A DNA stretch of 64,000 bases, from IMG/VR virus record IMGVR_UViG_3300032282_005588, positions 16,083-80,082 of that record. One strand, given 5' to 3'. Source of the DNA: a virus. The notes beneath the pieces were generated by a model that was not told the origin of the DNA, searched no databases, and saw nothing but the letters and a program-made list of their open reading frames with translations. Shown in pieces: positions 4,953 to 48,441 of the stretch. Within the stretch, counting starts at the first letter, position 1. The number at the start of each line of letters is the position of its first letter. The translations under genes and the position numbers were made by a program.

Positions 4953-6860
4953 ATGGGAATAACATTAAGAAGTGTAAAAGGCACAGCCTTAACCTTTACT
5001 GAATTAGATGATAATTTTTTATATCTATCTCAGTCATATACTACTACTAGTTCATTTAATTCATTTAGTAGTTCATATAACTCAGGGAGTTTTACTGGTT
5101 CATTTACTGGTAATCTTTCAGGAACATCAAGTTGGGCTAGTAATGCTTCTACTGCTTCATACGTTTTAAACGCAGTTTCAAGTTCATTCGCAACAACAGC
5201 TTCATTTTCACAAACAGCATCCTACGTTTTAAATGCAATATCAAGTTCATTTTCTACAACTGCATCATTTTCACAAACAGCTTCATTTGTTAATAATGCT
5301 CAAACAGCATCCTACGTTTTAAATGCAGTTTCAAGCTCATTTTCTACAACTGCATCATTTTCACAAACGGCTTCATTTGTTAAAAATGCACAAACAGCTT
5401 CATATGTTTTAAATGCAATATCAAGTTCATTTGCAACAACAGCTTCATTTTCACAAACGGCTTCATTTGTTAAAAATGCACAAACAGCATCATATTTCCC
5501 TAAGGTTATAGTAGATAACTCAACCCAGAATACATTAATAGCATCTTCTCCCAATAATAATGGTCTTTATAATACATCTTTGGGTGATGGTACTCTATTT
5601 TCAAATTCATCTGGGAATAGTAATACAGCACTAGGTGGTGGTGTAATGTATAATAATATATCAGGAGATAATAATACAGCCATAGGAGCAGATGCATTAT
5701 CTAATAATACCACTGGTACTGATAATATAGCTGCTGGGATACAATCATTATATTCAAACACTTTAGGAAGTTATAATATAGCTGCTGGGATACAATCATT
5801 ATATTCAAACACTTTAGGTAATAATAATACATCTATAGGATATCAAGCAACTCAAGGAAATACAACAGGAAACTATAATGTAGCTATGGGGGATCAAGCA
5901 TTATATTCTAATCAAACAGGTAGTTCAAATGTAGCTATAGGTACTAATGCTTTAAGAGCAAATGTACAAAACTTAAATGTAGCTATAGGTACTAATGCTT
6001 TATTCCAAAAAACTACAGGAAATGGAAACACAGCTATTGGTCATTACTCTCTATACCTGTTAAATACAGGTTCAAATAACGTAGCATTAGGATACCAAGC
6101 AGGATATAATGAGACTGGAAATAATAAATTACATATATCTAATACTAATGCATATTCATTAATATATGGTGAATTTAATAACAGATATCTCCAAGTTCAA
6201 GGAACATTAGCAGTTTCTTCCTCAATGTCTGTAACAGGTAGTTTAAATGTTCAATCAGGAATTACTAGTAGTTTATTTGGAACATCAAGTTGGGCTAGTA
6301 ATGCTTCTACTGCTTCATATGTTTTAAATGCAGTTTCAAGTTCATTTGCAACTAGTGCATCATTTGCTCAAACAGCATCTTTTGTTGCATCTGCATCTTT
6401 ATCTGCAACTTCATCATATTTAAATAAATTAAATCAAAATATAATTAATACTGGTTCTATATTCTCAGGAAATGGTTCAGGAACTGAAATTAGAGTTTGG
6501 GGTGAGGAAGGAAGTATAGAGATATGTAGGGATAGTTCTAAAGGTGGAAATGCATATATTGACTTTAAAAATAACATATCAGATGATTATGATGTTAGAA
6601 TAGGCCAAGTAGGCAACACAGATGCATTCGGAGTAGCATGTGGATATCCCAATGAGTATAATTTTCAGATAACAAATACAAGTACTAATATAACTGGTAG
6701 TTTAAATGTAACTGGTAGTTTAAATATTAATAATATACTAACACTAACACGAAGAACCACCACCCCAACTCCTATAGAAGGAATGATAATAGCTTCAGGA
6801 TCAGCAGGAGCTAGTGTTCTATACTACTACAATGGAACAACTTGGAATGCATTATTTTAA
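4953..6860 (+). CDS. Tail-fibre/adhesin-like Ser/Thr-rich repeat protein
   Basis: N-terminal LR..KG..LT..ELD.NF, TASYVLNAVSSSF repeats, and N(T/V)A(I/L)G..AL repeats (YadA-head-like). Confidence 0.65.
   Translation: MGITLRSVKGTALTFTELDDNFLYLSQSYTTTSSFNSFSSSYNSGSFTGSFTGNLSGTSSWASNASTASYVLNAVSSSFATTASFSQTASYVLNAISSSFSTTASFSQTASFVNNAQTASYVLNAVSSSFSTTASFSQTASFVKNAQTASYVLNAISSSFATTASFSQTASFVKNAQTASYFPKVIVDNSTQNTLIASSPNNNGLYNTSLGDGTLFSNSSGNSNTALGGGVMYNNISGDNNTAIGADALSNNTTGTDNIAAGIQSLYSNTLGSYNIAAGIQSLYSNTLGNNNTSIGYQATQGNTTGNYNVAMGDQALYSNQTGSSNVAIGTNALRANVQNLNVAIGTNALFQKTTGNGNTAIGHYSLYLLNTGSNNVALGYQAGYNETGNNKLHISNTNAYSLIYGEFNNRYLQVQGTLAVSSSMSVTGSLNVQSGITSSLFGTSSWASNASTASYVLNAVSSSFATSASFAQTASFVASASLSATSSYLNKLNQNIINTGSIFSGNGSGTEIRVWGEEGSIEICRDSSKGGNAYIDFKNNISDDYDVRIGQVGNTDAFGVACGYPNEYNFQITNTSTNITGSLNVTGSLNINNILTLTRRTTTPTPIEGMIIASGSAGASVLYYYNGTTWNALF
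5121..5493 (+). repeat. Tandem coding repeats TASYVLNA(V/I)SSSF(A/S)TTASFSQ, with a further copy near 6280-6350
   Basis: Near-identical DNA units are visible in the sequence. Confidence 0.85.
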
Positions 6861-6880
6861 TCAATAATATAAAAATTTTG

Positions 6881-6956
6881 GCTTAGGACCAATATAGTTA
6901 CATAGTAACTAAAATTCCGAGTAAAGTGTCGCTACATTACTCGGAATTCCTTTTCC
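6881..6956 (+). terminator. Two-hairpin element (terminator or cis-RNA) between the fibre gene and PolB
   Basis: TAGTTAC-ata-GTAACTA, then AATTCCGAGTAA-N12-TTACTCGGAATT, then a pyrimidine run. Confidence 0.5.
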
Positions 6957-7000
6957 TATTATATTTGGTAATCTCAAACTTTATTAGTATATTATAATAT

Positions 7001-9745
7001 ATGTATCAATCAATATTTTATTCAAATCATGGTGAAGATAAAGGAACAGTTTATTTAAGAGATGATATAAAGGGATTTAGAGAATTCAAATATTATCCTA
7101 CTGTATATAAATTAGATCCTGATGGTGAATATGAAACACTATTTGGTGATATGTGTAGTCCTGTTCGAGGAAGATTTGATTGGAATGATCCTACTATATT
7201 AGAAAAAGACATTCAAAAAGATATTGCATGTTTAAGAGACTTATATTATAAAGATGATTCTGCTCCTTCATATCACAATATAATTTATTTAGATATTGAG
7301 ATAGAAATATTAGGTACTCTAACACCCCAATCAGTAAGAGAGGCAAAAGCAGAAGTAACTGCAATTGCCTTAATTGATGTTAATACTAAAACTAAATATT
7401 GTTATGTTTTAGATAAATCAAAAACTATAAAATCAATTAATCAGGATAATAAACAAATTGTACCTTGTGTTGATGAAAAAGAATTATTAAATAAATTTTT
7501 AGATAAATGGATTGAATTAGACCCAACCATAGTAGTTGGTTATAATAGTGATTTTTTTGATATACCTTACTTATATTTTAGAATAAAGAATATATTAGGA
7601 GAAAATACAGCTTTATTATTATCCCCTATTAAAAAAATAAATGATAATTTATATAATCCATATTCACCAATTCAAATTGGAGGAATAAATAGTTTAGATT
7701 ATATGTTGTTAGTTAAAAAATATATAGCTAAAGAAGAACCATCATATAAATTAGGAGACATAGGACAAAAATATGTTGATTTAGGAAAGATAGAATATCA
7801 AGGATCTTTAGATAGATTATTTAAAGAAGATCCAAATAAATTTATTGAATATAACTTACGAGACGTTGAAATAATAGAAAAATTAGAAGAAAAACTCCAA
7901 TTTATTAAACTAACCATATTAATATGTCATTTATGTCATGTTCCATATGAAAGTATTTATTATAATACTATATTAAATGAAGGTGCAATATTAACGTATC
8001 TAAAAAGGAAAAACATTGTATCACCTAATAAACCAACCACTACCAATAAATCAATTAAAGAATTATATGTTGGGGATGAAGTTATTCATCAAAGAGGAAC
8101 ACCAACAGTAGAAGGTACTATAGTTTATATAGATGAAGTAACAGGTAAAATACAAGTTAAAACTAAATCAGGTTCTATAAAAGATAGAAGTCCAAAAACA
8201 ATAAGAAAGAAAGAAAGCTATGCTGGGGGATATTTATTACCCCCCATTCCTGGCTTATATGAATATGTAAGTGATTCTGACTTTACTAGTCTATACCCAA
8301 GTATAATAAAATCATTAAATTTAGGTATTGAAACATTAATAGGAAGAATAGTTACAAAATCTAATTATGAACAATATAATAGTTTAGAAAAACTAAAAGA
8401 AAGAAATCAAGAAGAAATTATTCAAATAGAAAAATTAGATACTAAAACATATATTTTAAAACAAGGTAAATGTAAAATAAAAAACCTAATTAAACTAATT
8501 GAAACAAACAAATGGTCAATATCAGCAAGCGGAGCATTTTATAGAAACGATAAAAAAAGCATTACTTGTTTAGTCCTAGAAGATTGGTTTATACAAAGAG
8601 AACATTATAGAGACTTAAAAAAGAAAGCAGGTAAATCTAAAGATTGGGATAAATACTCATTATATGATTTGTATCAAATGGCCTTCAAAATATTACAGAA
8701 CGCATTATACGGTACATATGCTATAAATGGTTGGAGATATACTGATGGTCATAAAATATGTTCTTCATCTATCACTAATTCAGGTCAAAGATTAGTAAAA
8801 GAGAGTATTATCTATATAAATGAGGATTTAGAAAAAACTATTAATAGTGGTAGAAAAGAATTCGTAATAAGTTCAGATACTGATTCTGCTTATATTGAGT
8901 TAAAAGATTTATTAAATATAAAATATCCTGATGTTATCAATGAAGAAGAAAAGATAGAAAAATTAATAGAATTATCACAAGAACTCCAAGTAAAAACAAA
9001 TAAGAACTTATTTAAAATAAGTAAAGATTTATTTAATATTACTAATAAACATTATTTTGAACTCAAACAGGAAGTAATAGTTAAAAGAGCATACTGGTCA
9101 GGTAAAAGGAGATATGCAATGTGGGTAGTAAATAAAGAAGGAGTACCAATTCCCCCAGACCATAAAGATGCACTAGATATGAAAGGATTAGATATCATGA
9201 AATCAAACTTCCCACCCTATTTCAGAAAATTTGGGGAGGAATTAATTAAGAAAATATTATTTGATACTCCTAAATTAGAAGTAGATAAATATATATTAGA
9301 TTTTAAAAAATCACTAAATGATATAAGCTGGAAATATCTACTTAAACCAACAGGTCTTAAGAAGATAAAAGAGTACATATCATCACCACCCCAACCAGGA
9401 AATATATTCTCTAAATTAGCATTAAAATGCCCAATTAACACCAAAGCAGCAATATATTCATCCGATTTTATTAAGTTTAAAGGATTAGATAAACAATTTC
9501 CTCTTCCCCAAATAGGAGATAAAATATATATAGTATATCTAAAAAAGAACCCATATAATATAGATGTCATAGCTCTAAATGGATATAATGATCCACCAGA
9601 ATTATTAGAAATATCCGAAAAATATATTGATAGAGATAAAATATTTGATAGTGTTCTTAAGAATAAATTAGAAGGTATATATGAAGATTTAAATTGGGGG
9701 ATTTTAGTATTGAATAATAACATTAACAAATTTTTTAATTTCTGA
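7001..9745 (+). CDS. Family B DNA polymerase with proofreading exonuclease
   Basis: ExoI DIEIE, ExoII GYNSDFFDIPY, ExoIII YNLRD. Pol motifs DFTSLYPS, KILQNALYG, DTDS, KRRY. Confidence 0.95.
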   Translation: MYQSIFYSNHGEDKGTVYLRDDIKGFREFKYYPTVYKLDPDGEYETLFGDMCSPVRGRFDWNDPTILEKDIQKDIACLRDLYYKDDSAPSYHNIIYLDIEIEILGTLTPQSVREAKAEVTAIALIDVNTKTKYCYVLDKSKTIKSINQDNKQIVPCVDEKELLNKFLDKWIELDPTIVVGYNSDFFDIPYLYFRIKNILGENTALLLSPIKKINDNLYNPYSPIQIGGINSLDYMLLVKKYIAKEEPSYKLGDIGQKYVDLGKIEYQGSLDRLFKEDPNKFIEYNLRDVEIIEKLEEKLQFIKLTILICHLCHVPYESIYYNTILNEGAILTYLKRKNIVSPNKPTTTNKSIKELYVGDEVIHQRGTPTVEGTIVYIDEVTGKIQVKTKSGSIKDRSPKTIRKKESYAGGYLLPPIPGLYEYVSDSDFTSLYPSIIKSLNLGIETLIGRIVTKSNYEQYNSLEKLKERNQEEIIQIEKLDTKTYILKQGKCKIKNLIKLIETNKWSISASGAFYRNDKKSITCLVLEDWFIQREHYRDLKKKAGKSKDWDKYSLYDLYQMAFKILQNALYGTYAINGWRYTDGHKICSSSITNSGQRLVKESIIYINEDLEKTINSGRKEFVISSDTDSAYIELKDLLNIKYPDVINEEEKIEKLIELSQELQVKTNKNLFKISKDLFNITNKHYFELKQEVIVKRAYWSGKRRYAMWVVNKEGVPIPPDHKDALDMKGLDIMKSNFPPYFRKFGEELIKKILFDTPKLEVDKYILDFKKSLNDISWKYLLKPTGLKKIKEYISSPPQPGNIFSKLALKCPINTKAAIYSSDFIKFKGLDKQFPLPQIGDKIYIVYLKKNPYNIDVIALNGYNDPPELLEISEKYIDRDKIFDSVLKNKLEGIYEDLNWGILVLNNNINKFFNF

Positions 9746-41326: not shown

Positions 41327-44311
41327 ATGGTAAAAATAATAATGGAATTTGATAGCTCAGATGAAGCCCAAGAAGCAATTGATGGTAGTAAATGGAAACA
41401 AGCATTTTGGGAATTAAATAATGAGCTTAGAAACACTACCAAATATGATGTTAGTATTATCAATAATAACTTACAAGCAACAGATATTGAACAAGAAATA
41501 TGTTCTAAAGTTAGAGATATGATGTTTGAAATCCTTAATAGATGGAATTTAAAAATAGATTAAATTAATTGTGAAAACACGAATTCATGTTAATCAACAC
41601 CATATACGTTCTAATAAAACAAAAGGCACTACACTCCCAGTAATTACTATTAAACAAGGTAAAAATAATACTTATTGTAATGAAGTAGAAATATTAGGAC
41701 CTAGTAAAATTATTTATGGTGGTAGTGGTTGTGATGCAAAACCACTTTTAAGTTGTGGAGCTAGAGTTGTAATCGAAACGGAAAGTGCAATCAAAATTAT
41801 AAAATAGTTTTTATACTTGGATTTGATAAAAAATTAACATATATTAATATTATAATAAATTAATAATAAAAATGAAAAATAAATTAAAGAATGGACGATT
41901 AGTATTTATGATGTGGAGTATATTCCATATTATCACCCTTTTATATTTTGGTTGGAATTTAGTTCCTCAACCATTTGTTACCATTGATGCTATATTATTT
42001 GGGGGATTTATTGGATTTTATTTTGTACAACCTTTAAGTGAAATTTATGAACAGTGGGTTAATAATAAACTAAATAAATAATGATTAATAATATATTATT
42101 ACAAATTTTTGTTAAATCCTTTTTTATTACTATAACTCTCACTAGTGTAGTGTATGGGTTTATTGCTTATTTAAATAAAACTATAATTTACAATAAATGG
42201 CCACAACATGCTCAACATAGTATGTTAGTTACTGGGGTTATGATATTATTGATGATTATTTTTATTGGGTTTGTTGACTTTAAATATAATAAATAAATAT
42301 AATGGATATAAATGTAGATTTAGATGATATTTTATGGGGAATGAGTGATTGGGAAAAACAAGAAATGTGTGATAATTTATGTGATGATGGTTATACCCCA
42401 TCAACTCAATCAATCGATGATATTAAATCATTTTTCTTTGAGGTTGAAGGGAGAATTACTCATAATGAAAGAGAATTATTAGATATATTAATTAGAATTT
42501 GGTATAATAAACATTTTATAAATAATAAAGACATTGAGCAACTCAAAATATATGCTAAAAAAGGATTATAATAATCCAATTAAAATGACTTTTAATCAGT
42601 GGTTAAATCATTATCAAAACCTAAATGACCATCAATATACTAAATTTAAACCATATGGAAGTTCAATTGATTATTTTTTTCATCATAAAAAAGATGGTTA
42701 TAACACATATGGTGTAATAATTTAAATAATCAATCAATGAAAGAAATAATAATCAAATATTGTAAGGGAGAACCATTACAAATAACTGAAGCAGTATCCA
42801 TAATTGAAGAATACATGCATTATGTTAAAAAATATAATCGTGAATTAATAATTCAATTGTTGAATCCAATGAACCCAATGGGAAGATCAATGTTAGATAT
42901 AGCACTACAGACCTCCATGATTTATCTTCAATGGAAATATTCAATAAATAAATTATATAGTAAAGACGGGCAATTACTAATGGTATTTTAACGTGGAAGA
43001 TTTAAAAAATTTGAGAAATTTTTGTGATAAACAAATTAAAAAACATCCCCAATTAAAAGTGGATATTATAACTTGTTATAATCTTTGTTTAGATAATATT
43101 GAAGAAGGAGAATCTGTTGTTAATGAAATTGAATTATGTTTAACTAATATAAACTATATATTGAACATGTATTATTTAAAATAACATTAAATATAAACCG
43201 TTAATTATCAATATTATATAAAAAGCTACAATCAATTATTTGATTTTGTAGCTTTCTTTATGTATATTGACATTATAATAAAAATAAAAAATGACTAAAA
43301 AAGAATATCATAAACAAATCAATAAAAGATTTTATGAATATATTAATCAACATTTTCCAAATTATGAGCTTGATTTCAATGAAGGTTATGGTTATGTATA
43401 TTTAATGTGTGAAAATAAAAATGATTTAATTGAATATCACCAATCAAGACATGATTTATGTATACATAATTATTCTACAGATAAAGCAAAACAGGACATG
43501 CTACAAATGGAAAGATATATCAATGAGAATATTATTCCATATGTTAACATGGTTACTGAAGTTTAGATTGTTAATTACTAACGCTCTATAAAAACTGTAG
43601 ATGAATATTTGGATTTACAAAATTTATTACATACATTAACATCATAATAAAAATTAAAAAAATGAAAAAATCAGAAAAATTAATCTACAGTTTAGAAATA
43701 CTTAAAGAGGTATTACAAAACCAACTAAAAGAAGGTAGAGAATATGGTCAAAAAACAAATGCGGATTGTGAATCCGGTTGGTATATTGGTACTATCAAAA
43801 CAGCAATTGAAGAAATAGATCGTATTACTAAAATCACTAAATAATCTATGAAAACATCAAATTTAAAATCAGGATTTTCCCTTTATGGAAACAAAGGTAA
43901 TGTTTGGGAAAATAATGCTCACATTTATCAATCCGGTAAAGGAAATTTATGTGGTACTCCAGCATTAGCATCTAATTGGGCTAAGGAAATGAAGATGGAA
44001 GAAGCAAATTGTGAGAAATGTAATAAATTATATAATACTCTAGAATATAAAGTATAATAAACAATAAAATGCTTGTAGAGTGTATAGATATATCAAACAG
44101 ACCTGAAGACATACCAACATCAATGTGGTTAAAGAAAAAGGTTTACACTGTGGTGAGTAGAACATTTCATCCAATTCATAATTATTACTCACTTCAACTA
44201 GAAGAAGTACATCCACCCCCACCTTATATTGGATATAAGGAATCAAGATTTAAACCTATAGAAGATATTAGTATAATAGAATTAATAGAAGAAAAAATAG
44301 AAACAATATGA
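41327..44311 (+). other. Run of small hypothetical genes: 41327-41563, 41571-41807, 41872-42081, 42081-42296, 42302-42571, 42585-42725, 42737-42991, 42993-43184, 43291-43566, 43662-43844, 43848-44057, 44069-44311
   Basis: Tightly packed co-directional ORFs with A-rich leaders, several behind early promoters. Confidence 0.6.
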
Positions 44312-44616
44312 AGAATAAACTAGATAAACAATATACAGACCTGCTCCAAGATATCTTAGATAATGGAGTAAAAAAACAAACCAGAAATGGTGAAGTGTTA
44401 TCAATATTCGGTAGACAAATTCGTCACAACATGAAAGATGGTTTCCCACTTCTTACAACTAAGAAGATGGCTTGGAAATCAATTGTAACTGAGTTACTCT
44501 GGTTTCTCCGTGGTTCAACTCGAGGTGATGAGTTAGTAAGGCAAGGGTGTAATATTTGGGTAGGGGATATGTATGCTAATTATTTAAAAGAGTATGAAAA
44601 ACATAAAGAAAATTAA
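44308..44616 (+). CDS. thyA: Thymidylate synthase, N-terminal fragment
   Basis: QY.DLL..IL.NG, R, FG.Q.R, GFPLLTTKK, ELLWFLRG, NIW. Ends in its own stop. Confidence 0.9.
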   Translation: MKNKLDKQYTDLLQDILDNGVKKQTRNGEVLSIFGRQIRHNMKDGFPLLTTKKMAWKSIVTELLWFLRGSTRGDELVRQGCNIWVGDMYANYLKEYEKHKEN

Positions 44617-44752
44617 AAATAAATGGGTTTTTTAAGTAAAAGTACAATATTTATAAATGTAGAGTTGCGGCTACATGTAAGATATTTAATTAACTAAATG
44701 CTAATGGTGAGTAGAGTACCGCAATCTCGAAAGCCTTAGTATTTTTTATTTT

Positions 44753-45607
44753 ATGAATTACCTAAAAATTTACGAACAATTAATTGATAAAGCTAAGAGA
44801 GAAGATAGAGATTACATAAGTAATAAAATCTACGAAAGACACCACATACTTCCTAAATGTATGGGAGGGGATGGGAAAGTTAATCAATGGAGAACTCACC
44901 CCAATATAGTAATTTTAACTCCTCGAGAACATTATTTAGCTCACACTCTATTATGTGAGATATATCCTGAAAATTCTAAATTAAAGTTTGCATTATGGGC
45001 TATGTCTAATCAATTAGGAGAAAACAGAAAATATAAAATATGTTCTAGACAGTATGAAAGAGTGAGAGAAAACTATGTAAAACTAGTAAGAGGAGTACCT
45101 AAGACTGATGAGCATAAAATAAAGTTAAGTGAGGCATTAAAAGGAAGGGAAAGAGAGGAATTTACTGAATTACACAAAATTAATATCAGTAAAAATATTA
45201 AAGGAATTAAAAAATCAAAAGAACATAGAAAAAATCTCTCTAAATCCAAAAGCATTCCTGTATTTCAATATACTTTAGACGGTGTGTTTTTAAAACAATG
45301 GGAATCTGCCAAAAAAGCAGGAAATATATTAAATATAGACCCTGGAGATATTACAGGTTGTAGAAGAGGAGTAAAAAAGAGTGCTGGGGGATTTCTTTGG
45401 AAAGAAAATAAGATAGAAGTTAAACCCTACAAACATAATAACTCATCTAATATATTGCAGTATACTCTCGAAGGAGAGTTTATACAAGAATTTCAAAGTA
45501 TATCTAAAGCTTCCAAAATCTTAAAACTCAATCCCTCAGGAATATCTAATTGTGCTAATGGAAGATCTAAATATTCTGGTGGGTTTATTTGGAGATATAA
45601 AAAATAG
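44753..45607 (+). CDS. Free-standing HNH homing endonuclease with NUMOD3/NUMOD1 DNA-binding repeats
   Basis: YERHHILPKCMGG, LTPREHYLAH.LL, HK.K.S repeats, two QYTL.G.F...(W/F).S...A...L...GGF.W units. Confidence 0.88.
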   Translation: MNYLKIYEQLIDKAKREDRDYISNKIYERHHILPKCMGGDGKVNQWRTHPNIVILTPREHYLAHTLLCEIYPENSKLKFALWAMSNQLGENRKYKICSRQYERVRENYVKLVRGVPKTDEHKIKLSEALKGREREEFTELHKINISKNIKGIKKSKEHRKNLSKSKSIPVFQYTLDGVFLKQWESAKKAGNILNIDPGDITGCRRGVKKSAGGFLWKENKIEVKPYKHNNSSNILQYTLEGEFIQEFQSISKASKILKLNPSGISNCANGRSKYSGGFIWRYKK

Positions 45608-45633
45608 TTATTATTTTTAATAAATTAAAAGTT

Positions 45634-46509
45634 ATGAAATTTAAAAAAGAAGATTTACACCCAGATGGGAGACCATTCACCAAAGAAGAATTTATCAACA
45701 AAATAAAAACCGATGGTGAGTTTGCCAAGAGGTGGGGTGAATTAGGACCTGTGTATGGTAAGCAATGGAGACAATGGAGTACTCATAAAACTGTAGTAGT
45801 AGGGCATAATGGAAATCATAATGAATTTGGGACAATTGTTATAGACCAAATCCAAAACCTAATCAACGACCTTAAAACAAACCCAGACTCAAGACGACTA
45901 ATGGTTTCAGCTTGGAATGTAGGCGAATTAGACCAATGCGTGCTTCCACCTTGTCATTATGGATTTCAAGTTTATACAAGAGAGTTGAGTTTAAGTGAAA
46001 GAACTTTTTGGATTATGTCCAACAGACCTGAACAATTAGGGAGTCAAAATTATTTAGACGGAGATAGGCAAGGTATGAAATCAACTGATTATTATGGAGT
46101 ACCAACCAGAGCAATCTCTTTAATGTATAATACCCGAAGTCAAGATGTTCCATTAGGTACACCATTTAATATATCATCATATGCTCTATTGTTAGAAATT
46201 ATTGCGAAGATGGTTAATATGGTTCCTGAAGAGTTGATTACTAATATGGGTGATTGTCATATCTATCTAAACCAAATTGATGGGATTAAGGAACAATTAA
46301 CAAGAGAACCATATCCACTACCTAAATTGAATATTAATACAGAATGGTGGCCAACAGAAGGTGGTTCATGTGGTGAAGGTCCTTTAGATGTTCAAGCAGT
46401 ACTAGATGGTTTTTCTAGTGATTCTTTTGCAAGTTGTTTAATTGAAGAAGATATTCAGTTATATAATTATAAAAGTCATCCGGCAATCAAAATGCCTTTA
46501 TCAAATTAA
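45634..46509 (+). CDS. thyA: Thymidylate synthase, C-terminal catalytic fragment
   Basis: LGPVYGKQWR, DQI, PDSRRLMVSAWN, LPPCH, RSQDVPLG.PFN, GDCHIY.N. Confidence 0.92.
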   Translation: MKFKKEDLHPDGRPFTKEEFINKIKTDGEFAKRWGELGPVYGKQWRQWSTHKTVVVGHNGNHNEFGTIVIDQIQNLINDLKTNPDSRRLMVSAWNVGELDQCVLPPCHYGFQVYTRELSLSERTFWIMSNRPEQLGSQNYLDGDRQGMKSTDYYGVPTRAISLMYNTRSQDVPLGTPFNISSYALLLEIIAKMVNMVPEELITNMGDCHIYLNQIDGIKEQLTREPYPLPKLNINTEWWPTEGGSCGEGPLDVQAVLDGFSSDSFASCLIEEDIQLYNYKSHPAIKMPLSN

Positions 46510-46521
46510 TAAATAAAAATT

Positions 46522-47085
46522 ATGAAATCAAATTTAACAGAAAAATTATCGTCTATTTGCGGGAGTGCAGATAAGACTTATGGTTGTAATGATATTGAAT
46601 CAATAACACAACTAACAGAAGAGCAACGTATTCAAGTAGAAGCAGAATTAATTAACCATTTTGGGTTTGATAAAATTATATGGATGCAACTTCCCTCAGG
46701 TCTTACAGAAGACAAAAAAACAACAATAGTTGCAGAAACTAGAAAAATATCAGATTCAGACGATCCAACTCACAAACATAAAGTAGGATATATTTACACT
46801 TTAAACTTTATTCCAAAAATGTATGAATCGGGAGAAATGTATAAACCAGTAAAAGATGGTTGTGTGTTTGCTCCTATCATCTTCGATCCAGTAACTTTTA
46901 CGCCTACACAAAGTATTACATTAACTTGGTCACCTGAATTTCCTCAAGACATTAATGCACCAGAAAGAACTCTTGAAGACGAAAAGCAAATGATTCGTGA
47001 TATGTTAGAAAAGGTATTGGACAATCCTGAAGAGTATAGACCGGTTGGATATACAGGATGTTTACTAAGGTATGTGGCAGTCTAA
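46522..47085 (+). CDS. Hypothetical protein (thyA-array cargo 1)
   Basis: 187 aa between repeat copies 1 and 2. Confidence 0.65.
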   Translation: MKSNLTEKLSSICGSADKTYGCNDIESITQLTEEQRIQVEAELINHFGFDKIIWMQLPSGLTEDKKTTIVAETRKISDSDDPTHKHKVGYIYTLNFIPKMYESGEMYKPVKDGCVFAPIIFDPVTFTPTQSITLTWSPEFPQDINAPERTLEDEKQMIRDMLEKVLDNPEEYRPVGYTGCLLRYVAV

Positions 47086-47136
47086 TCACACCCAACAATT
47101 AAAGCGCCTTTAAGTAACTGATGCATATTTATTAAC

Positions 47137-47685: not shown

Positions 47686-47735
47686 TCACACCCAGCAATT
47701 AAAGCACCTTTATCAAATTAACCATATTTATTAAC

Positions 47736-48186: not shown

Positions 48187-48396
48187 ATGGAAAATTTCGA
48201 AAAATTAAATTTAAAAGTTAGAATTCAAATTCTTGATGCTAATGACCAAATTCTTTTACAATCTACAATTAATCAAAATGATGTAAATGATTTAAGAGTT
48301 TATCAAGGTGTTAGTCTTGTAGATGAAACTTACCTGATGTTGTTAGAAACATTAAAACAAAAAATAGATAGTGAATCAATCACACCCAACAATTAA
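48187..48396 (+). CDS. Hypothetical protein
   Basis: 69 aa. The 3' end overlaps thyA repeat copy 4. Confidence 0.55.
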   Translation: MENFEKLNLKVRIQILDANDQILLQSTINQNDVNDLRVYQGVSLVDETYLMLLETLKQKIDSESITPNN

Positions 48397-48441
48397 AGCA
48401 CCTTTATCAAATTAACCATATTTATTATAAAAAAATAAACT

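Follow-up and report, generated by a model that had tools for sequence, protein, structure and literature searches.

A phage thymidylate synthase gene divided by a homing endonuclease gene: a probable two-chain enzyme and the recurrence of the split in related phages

Can a phage retain a thymidylate synthase (TS) when its gene, thyA, is broken in the middle by the gene of another protein? This question is raised by a window of 64,000 nucleotides (nt), the whole stretch of DNA analysed here, which covers positions 16,083-80,082 of the IMG/VR virus record IMGVR_UViG_3300032282_005588. Three genes of the same strand are found at 44308-46509 of the window in the list of open reading frames (ORFs) and in the sequence: an N-terminal piece of thyA, an endonuclease gene and a C-terminal piece of thyA. 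The presence of thyA as two ORFs flanking an endonuclease gene, which had been proposed in a preliminary description of this DNA, is confirmed. The two pieces probably encode a two-chain ThyA, (N.C)2, which would be rebuilt without RNA or protein splicing from a cassette that would spread by gene conversion. This reading is favoured because of the anatomy of the locus, the recurrence of the split where there is no room for an intron, the selection on both pieces, the mobility of the cassette, the persistence of the split after loss of the endonuclease and the precedent of nrdA in phage Aeh1.

Anatomy of the divided thyA locus

The features of the locus, with the source of each in brackets, are as follows.

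44308..44616, + strand: thyA N-piece, 102 amino acids (aa) followed by its own TAA stop (ORF list)
44584..44613, + strand: tail of the N-piece, the new C-terminus LKEYEKHKEN (alignments)
44617..44752, + strand: spacer of 136 nt before the endonuclease gene (sequence)
44753..45607, + strand: free-standing homing endonuclease gene, 284 aa (Pfam, PHROGs, tblastn)
45608..45633, + strand: A/T-rich leader of 26 nt, from the endonuclease stop to the ATG of the C-piece (sequence)
45634..46509, + strand: thyA C-piece, 291 aa followed by TAA (ORF list)
45634..45681, + strand: head of the C-piece, the new N-terminus MKFKKEDLHPDGRPFT, which precedes the native helix KEEFINKIKTD

The two thyA pieces tile one TS domain, since positions 1-82 of the PF00303 profile are covered by the N-piece (Pfam, E 5.7e-26) and positions 81-265 by the C-piece (E 3e-57), both above the Pfam cut-off. 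The N-piece aligns with residues 2-80 of E. coli TS and the C-piece from about residue 77, while the best alignment of the C-piece to a solved structure is with 4dq1, the long-form TS of S. aureus (E 1.4e-39, from residue 129). From these alignments the break falls within the insert of long-form TS that follows the IW motif. It lies between ..NIW-GDMYANY.. and ..KEEFINKIK..LGPVYG, in a stretch that is a hypervariable insert in the ThyA of Flavobacterium phage immuto and in most IMG/VR relatives, in agreement with the earlier placing of the break between NIW and LGPVYG in a variable-insert region.

Every catalytic residue of TS is present and the set is shared out between the pieces, so the catalytic motifs are intact, as had been stated. 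The N-piece has R26, E62 and W84, which correspond to R21, E58 and W80 of E. coli TS. The C-piece has Y41 (Y94 in E. coli TS), R87/R88 (R126/R127), C107 (C146), R168, S169, D171, N179 (N177), H209 and Y211, and its full catalytic set in E. coli numbering is Y94, R126, R127, C146, H147, R166, S167, D169, N177, H207 and Y209. Position 177 is Asn in the C-piece; in TS, Asn or Asp at this position distinguishes specificity for deoxyuridine monophosphate from specificity for deoxycytidine monophosphate, respectively. No second PF00303 match and no ThyX is found in the 80-kb record besides the two TS pieces.

The junctions between N-piece, spacer and HNH gene and between HNH gene and C-piece are both bridged by contigs of other runs from two further studies (a public contig of 1962 nt spans 44401-45647 and one of 826 nt spans 44907-45668), and the arrangement is therefore real DNA and not an assembly artefact. 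A strain variant in run X3 has an extra C after 44614 and the substitution A44617C, which places the stop of the N-piece some 8 codons farther downstream; the very end of the tail is thus variable.

The product of the middle gene matches phrog_655, annotated as 'homing endonuclease' (PHROGs, E 2.7e-40). It has an N-terminal HNH motif, HH..N..H, at residues 30-63, the Pfam domains NUMOD1 and I-HmuI NUMOD-like, and tandem C-terminal modules that are predicted to bind DNA. Its nearest matches in cultured phages, by tblastn, are T4 MobB and the MobE of RB3 and T-even phages, with 28-33% identity over 80-99% of the query and E values of 2e-20 to T4 mobB and 1e-15 to mobE loci. The sequence identifies the middle gene as a homing endonuclease gene of the MobE/MobB-type HNH-NUMOD kind, which encodes a putative nuclease and belongs to a family whose members in T-even phages are free-standing genes, and the earlier recognition of a free-standing HNH endonuclease in thyA is borne out by the tblastn matches together with phrog_655.

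In the proposed mechanism, a free-standing HNH gene of the MobE/MobB type would have inserted in the surface 'small-domain' insert of a phage thyA, and the insertion would have given the upstream part a short new tail and a stop, and left the downstream part with a short new head behind an ATG of its own. All three genes would probably be co-transcribed and translated separately. The N-chain of 102 aa and the C-chain of 291 aa would associate non-covalently and rebuild the TS fold, and two N.C pairs would form the usual TS dimer, (N.C)2. The composite active site would take R21, E58 and W80 from the N-chain and Y94, C146, R166, S167, D169, N177, H207 and Y209 from the C-chain, which would also donate R126/R127 to the partner protomer. 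The cassette, made of tail and stop, endonuclease, and start and head, would spread among thyA alleles by gene conversion triggered by the endonuclease. Separate translation, assembly, enzyme activity and the homing mechanism are the parts of this scheme that we infer.

The element ATATTTAT is located at 44647-44654, inside the spacer and 106 nt before the ATG of the HNH gene. It has 19 copies on the + strand of the window, about ten of which lie 12-35 nt before an ORF, and it is a candidate phage promoter element. In a sigma-70 promoter scan, promoter-like sites were no commoner than in shuffled sequences, and no terminator-like site was found within 44000-46800. The leaders of all three genes are A/T-rich and lack a Shine-Dalgarno sequence, which is usual in Bacteroidota phages. 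The simplest model, put forward weakly and by analogy with Aeh1, would be that the three genes are co-transcribed and translated independently.

Two contigs of 151 nt from a salt-marsh metatranscriptome match the HNH ORF (44873-45023 and 45110-45260) with 0 and 1 differences. They may represent transcription or carry-over of DNA, and their habitat label is at odds with the otherwise freshwater sources.

Recurrence of the split and the readings that involve splicing

Among cultured phages, the closest relatives are the 'immuto' phages of Flavobacterium, which come from the Baltic Sea and have ThyA as one intact ORF of 423 aa, and the public runs that hold parts of the window are mostly labelled as freshwater or lake-water metagenomes. 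In a first IMG/VR set of 162 loci, thyA is intact in 136 and split in 16, and in the enlarged set it is intact in 243 IMG/VR loci. The exact break of the window, hereafter site A, is found in 14 IMG/VR loci, which represent 11 distinct alleles, and in 4 metagenome loci. At least four types of endonuclease occupy the gap at site A: the phrog_655 HNH protein (the window and L158), a GIY-YIG protein of phrog_314 (L012 and L085), a NUMOD protein of 230-240 aa with a degenerate N-domain (L031, L042, L051, L059, L066 and L219) and an endonuclease of the phrog_3339 type with 323 aa (L075, L435, L451 and L457). The order and the adjacency of the N- and C-pieces are the same in every split locus examined.

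Stand-alone N-pieces are numerous. Matches to the N-piece among proteins of 56-179 aa form 1722 clusters at E<=1e-5, and of the best 120 of these clusters 97 stop at site A (mostly at 101-112 aa), 15 stop at a second site and 8 are truncated or other. The closest metagenome relative of the window lineage has 83% identity over residues 1-92 and 80% over nearly the full length.

The tail of the window belongs to a ..Y(L/M/I)KE(Y/C)EK.K.. type that is common to split alleles and replaces the variable insert of intact alleles. Its head belongs to a M(K)..K.DLH..GRP type that is present only in split alleles, and among about 400 related loci (e.g. L001-L404) this motif is confined to the starts of C-pieces. 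The start codon and the head of the C-piece are conserved across split alleles. At the DNA level, the best matches of the tail segment include the split loci L012 and L088 (76%), and two intact and two site-C loci match it weakly (site C is described below). For the head segment, the top six matches all fall in split or partial loci.

If the HNH ORF were carried by a group I intron, as I-TevI is in the td gene of T4, a spliced mRNA would give a single ThyA chain. T4 td does hold a group I intron, introns are known to encode HNH-NUMOD endonucleases such as I-HmuI, and the 136-nt spacer of the window allele (44617..44752) has an imperfect inverted repeat at 44662-44670 / 44719-44728, all of which would be in keeping with an intron. 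The Rfam check that had been proposed for such an intron gave no family, even at E<=10, over 43800-47000, and at E<=1 nothing except a tRNA in seven related split loci. No extra fold stability over shuffled sequences was found at 44560-44800 (z +0.88), and the non-coding DNA round the endonuclease ORF, 136 + 26 nt in the window, is well below a group I core. The preliminary description had relied on the distance from the endonuclease stop to the ATG of the C-half, regarded as too short for the 3' core elements of an intron. The length, exactly 26 nt, stands, but by itself the argument carries little weight, since the core of an intron can be entered by an endonuclease ORF (review PMC2988022), which is also a point in favour of an intron.

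The relatives provide stronger evidence. Many alleles with the same break have merely 38-45 nt before the endonuclease, the ORF of which overlaps the ATG of the C-piece; an overlap of this ORF with the stop of the N-piece, the ATG of the C-piece or both is seen in L158, L031 and L075, and L158 has both overlaps. Since alleles that share the tail, the head and the break of the window have 38 nt or zero non-coding DNA and overlapping ORFs, there is no room in them for a ribozyme core, and the intron reading is rejected as highly improbable.

In P0022, a truncated database protein, the tail and the head are fused in frame (..KEYEK-V-MKF..). It may be an empty target site or a re-fusion, and a search of IMG/VR for its close relatives found none above 68% identity. 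The junction that P0022 implies could not arise by splicing with U preceding the 5' splice site and G as the last intron nucleotide, which is a further point against the intron. No public DNA contigs that skip the endonuclease were found.

A split intein would instead join the two chains by protein trans-splicing, as in the 'fractured genes' of Dassa et al. 2009 (PMC2677866), which pair a free-standing endonuclease with split inteins. In the window, the ends that extend past the TS homology have only about 10 and 16 residues, with no Cys, Ser or Thr at the junctions and no terminal His-Asn, and no intein or Hint domain is matched by Pfam in the N-piece or in the C-piece. The absence of intein motifs noted earlier is thus upheld, and an intein is improbable in the extreme. 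Translational bypass of the T4 gene 60 type is out, as the gap is about 1 kb with a whole gene inside.

Mobility of the cassette and selection on the two pieces

The distribution of the split alleles was examined on a tree, which was built from core columns only, with the junction regions excluded and 10 distinct split-A alleles as rows. These 10 rows require 10 state changes, of which at least 7 are forced by well-supported branches, and they show zero clustering; the split alleles are scattered on the core tree and the cassette therefore moves between thyA backgrounds. The thyA of the window is itself a mosaic, the segments of which have their best matches in different alleles, at 78-98% identity (86-98% save the last 180 nt). 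The N core is closest to the intact loci L083/L086 (88%), the helix block to the intact locus L299 (96%), the loop to the intact loci L035/L306 (98%) and the later segments to other intact loci (78-95%). A mosaic gene and scattered split alleles are the pattern expected of gene conversion driven by an endonuclease, with short co-conversion tracts and frequent recombination, and thyA would be a recombination hot spot in these phages.

Across the about 400 related loci, the hypervariable stretches of intact alleles, which differ in both length and sequence, coincide exactly with the three cassette sites, which are located after GDAY..Y, after QWRxW and, in some alleles, before LPPCH. The variable inserts of intact alleles may be scars of gain and loss of the cassette, or may reflect escape from cleavage. 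Motifs similar to the tail are kept in some intact inserts, such as YLKKYEQDK at the site A of L089, a locus that is split elsewhere in the gene.

Selection was measured as pN/pS (the ratio of non-synonymous to synonymous differences per site) among 11 split alleles, in which synonymous sites are near saturation (pS 0.5-0.77). The values are 0.25 for the N core, 0.35 for the N tail, 0.55 for the C head, 0.21 for the block from the native helix to LGPVYGKQWR, 0.49 for the rest of the C-piece and 1.04 for the variable loop. By these values, the N-piece and the C-piece are both under purifying selection.

Several points weigh against a two-chain enzyme. The pN/pS values come from saturated comparisons and the variable regions are partly misaligned. 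Residue Q165 of E. coli TS is Thr here (NTRSQD), at a position that is variable across the clade. Introns with large ORFs are poorly detected by the Rfam group I model, and the 136-nt spacer is unique to the window allele, unlike its relatives, with no blastn match among the about 400 related loci. The only RNA run has short contigs within the N-piece, the HNH ORF and the C-piece, which leave the junctions unreached. The record is about 50% complete, so another TS may lie elsewhere in the genome.

This incompleteness also favours the view that thyA was inactivated by the insertion, which would make the ORFs decaying relics in a phage that uses the TS of the host or another gene; homing endonucleases do disrupt genes, and phages can use host synthesis of deoxythymidine monophosphate. 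Inactivation is nevertheless unlikely in view of the catalytic residues, all kept in both pieces, the purifying selection on both pieces with synonymous sites saturated, the conserved start codon and head of the C-piece and the abundance of stand-alone N-pieces, with their common end at site A in 97 of the best 120 of 1722 clusters. It is very unlikely that the pieces are kept for new and separate functions, such as a regulatory or binding role of one fragment, as they are adjacent in every split locus examined and selection is strongest on the catalytic blocks of both.

Further split sites, known split genes and the thyA 3' end

The ThyA of this phage clade is also split at two further places, sites B and C. 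Site B lies after the QWRxW loop and is found in seven loci, the gaps of which hold an HNH gene and small ORFs. Site C, which separates AWNV.DL from MVLPPCH and closely precedes the catalytic Cys, is found in about 12 loci, the gaps of which hold a GIY-YIG endonuclease, an HNH endonuclease or no endonuclease. At both sites the N-piece carries an added tail, ..DD(E/K)LY.DYLK.., and the C-piece opens with an added head, ..(T/S)KEEFL.KLKTD..F...(Y/F)G... This head and the native helix of the protein are homologous (12/30 residues identical, E 2e-6), and the tail resembles the native GDAY..YL segment. In sequence, the arms appear to be copied from the flanks on either side of site A.

The arms match the catalytic core in constraint and are more constrained than the tail and head of the window, which are also not oppositely charged. 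At site C, pN/pS is 0.11 for the tail, 0.20 for the head and 0.11-0.29 for the core; at site B it is 0.11 for the tail and 0.06 for the head. The synonymous divergence of the arms at sites B and C is pS 0.34-0.58, whereas native variable inserts and the residues between ..YLK and the stop are neutral (0.9-1.05). Because pN/pS is low at this divergence while the neighbours are neutral, the arms are conserved at the protein level and this is no by-product of recent copying.

The split persists without the endonuclease. In L089, L239 and L117, which are split at another site than A, the endonuclease has been lost and thyA is still split. The N-piece of L089 (4100-4360) ends in ..NKNFKNWNYEN, which matches the C-terminus ..KNKNFKNWSYE of the GIY-YIG protein of L145 (4220-4957). 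Since the tail runs into the last residues of a GIY-YIG protein, L089 bears the trace of an internal deletion by which the endonuclease was lost.

The arms are also found outside thyA. A scan with a DNA pattern of the head motif recovered 19 loci, of which 17 are C-pieces of site-C thyA and the other two are L422 and L421. L422 (4931-6831) has a TS-like paralog, 33% identical to ThyA, which is split just before the HPCH motif with the same arms as site-C thyA and an HNH gene similar to phrog_655; this paralog is without the DSRR motif and is possibly a different pyrimidine-modifying enzyme. L421 (4275-5384, minus strand) has an ORF of 37 aa that is a truncated site-C head, about 1 kb downstream of an intact thyA (6460-7737), and beside this remnant are the small cargo ORFs that also occupy the gap of thyA in L117/L167. 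The gap contents and the arms can therefore also sit outside thyA, and from both loci it follows that the arms travel with the cassette.

These observations suggest, at somewhat less than even chances, that the cassette carries its own selected pair of 'reassembly' peptides and can cut ThyA at no fewer than three surface sites, as well as a TS-like paralog, with the enzyme still working. The upstream piece would carry one arm at its new C-terminus, the downstream piece would carry the other at its new N-terminus, and both arms would derive from the flanks of the variable small-domain insert of ThyA, D.D.Y..YLK and (T/S).EEF..K.KTD..F....G. The suggestion is made because the same arms are present at sites B and C with different endonucleases or none, because of their homology to the native helix and because of their low pN/pS. 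A prediction of the complex of the isolated site-C arms of L164 (a 34-residue tail and a 34-residue head) gave a score of 0.16, with a mark of 0.32, which speaks neither for nor against the suggestion, and no natural in-frame fusion of a site-B/C tail and head was found in all the loci searched. If the suggestion is true, the arms would let a selfish element remain harmless to its host gene by portable means that need no splicing, and the loci would be a natural test set of many alleles for the tails mechanism of Crona et al., which was drawn from the single case of Aeh1.

Full-text searches found no paper on a naturally split thymidylate synthase, and the papers that they returned on TS or on fragment complementation were irrelevant. 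The td gene of T4 with I-TevI is similar to the thyA of the window in that a phage TS gene is interrupted by a mobile element, with a homing endonuclease that has NUMOD-type modules. T4 td is restored by RNA self-splicing, and its interruption is elsewhere in the gene, whereas no intron is detectable in the thyA of the window and its relatives have no room for one.

The closest precedent is the nrdA-a/mobE/nrdA-b arrangement of Aeromonas phage Aeh1 (Friedrich et al. 2007, as cited in PMC2988022), in which the chains of the mobE-split NrdA are translated separately and the enzyme is fully active (PMC2988022; PMC3045599). The tails that resulted from the mobE insertion are essential for the activity of NrdA and for its (alpha-a/alpha-b)2 assembly, and Crona et al. 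2010 predicted that such tails are perhaps general yet hard to find (PMC3045599). The analogy with Aeh1 drawn in the preliminary description is sound in its anatomy, in the MobE-type endonuclease and in the absence of a detected intron or intein. In both cases an essential gene of nucleotide metabolism is present as two ORFs around a free-standing MobE-type HNH gene, the active-site residues are divided between the chains, short new tails are found at the broken ends, and the endonuclease ORF abuts or overlaps the downstream piece. The cases differ in the enzyme (NrdA there, ThyA here) and in the charge of the ends, as the tails of Aeh1 are oppositely charged and the tail and head of the window are not. 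They also differ in that biochemical work on Aeh1 demonstrated activity and a requirement for the tails whereas the thyA split is known from sequence, and in frequency, because the split of Aeh1 is unique among 1200 nrdA sequences (PMC3045599) and that of thyA is present in many wild alleles with at least four endonuclease types.

Other split or adjacent phage genes share part of this pattern. T4 gene 39/60 with mobA and the split gene 43 of Aeromonas phages 25 and 44RR are replication genes split by, or adjacent to, an endonuclease gene, the polypeptides of which reassemble, and in gene 43 of 44RR the split persists without an endonuclease, as in L089 and L239 (PMC2988022). They encode other enzymes and give no sign of one same-ended cassette reused at several sites. 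The fractured genes of Dassa et al. 2009 (PMC2677866) have the same order of host N-part, endonuclease and host C-part, and peptides added at the ends; there, the added peptides are intein halves that ligate the chains, whereas the ends of thyA are far too short and have no intein motifs. The nrdD of Felix O1-like phages (PMC4837284) is a gene of nucleotide metabolism annotated in cultured phages as split by a homing endonuclease. It is another gene, and its ends, mobility and selection are not analysed in the parts of that paper that deal with it.

By analogy, the thyA system fits the prediction of Crona et al. and would extend it to many alleles, endonucleases and sites, with arms that would be traceable to the small domain of ThyA itself; contact between the arms, or a requirement for them, is presumed. 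TS, a classic drug target and selection marker, would be added to the short list of essential phage enzymes that survive a split by an endonuclease without splicing, and with a split seen in many wild alleles, against one phage for Aeh1. The loci would form an extensive comparative resource on the view of Crona et al. 2010 that tails derived from an insertion can neutralise the break in a gene, and would offer natural split points of ThyA with candidate helper peptides for the design of split enzymes and complementation. Caution is also indicated in annotation, since 'truncated' thyA of about 100 aa and about 290 aa in freshwater viromes are probably functional halves and not pseudogenes.

At the 3' end of thyA, the last 11 codons and the stop (SHP(A/T)IK(A/M)PLSN*, 46474-46509) recur at 47086-47121, 47686-47721 and 48380-48415, and the copies at 47086 and 47686 each follow immediately on a downstream gene's stop. 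In L077 and L312 a GIY-YIG endonuclease is located just 3' of thyA, followed in L077 by a second copy of the thyA 3' end. From the repeated copies and from these two loci, the 3' end of thyA looks like a further insertion site, at which cargo arrives with a duplicated flank.

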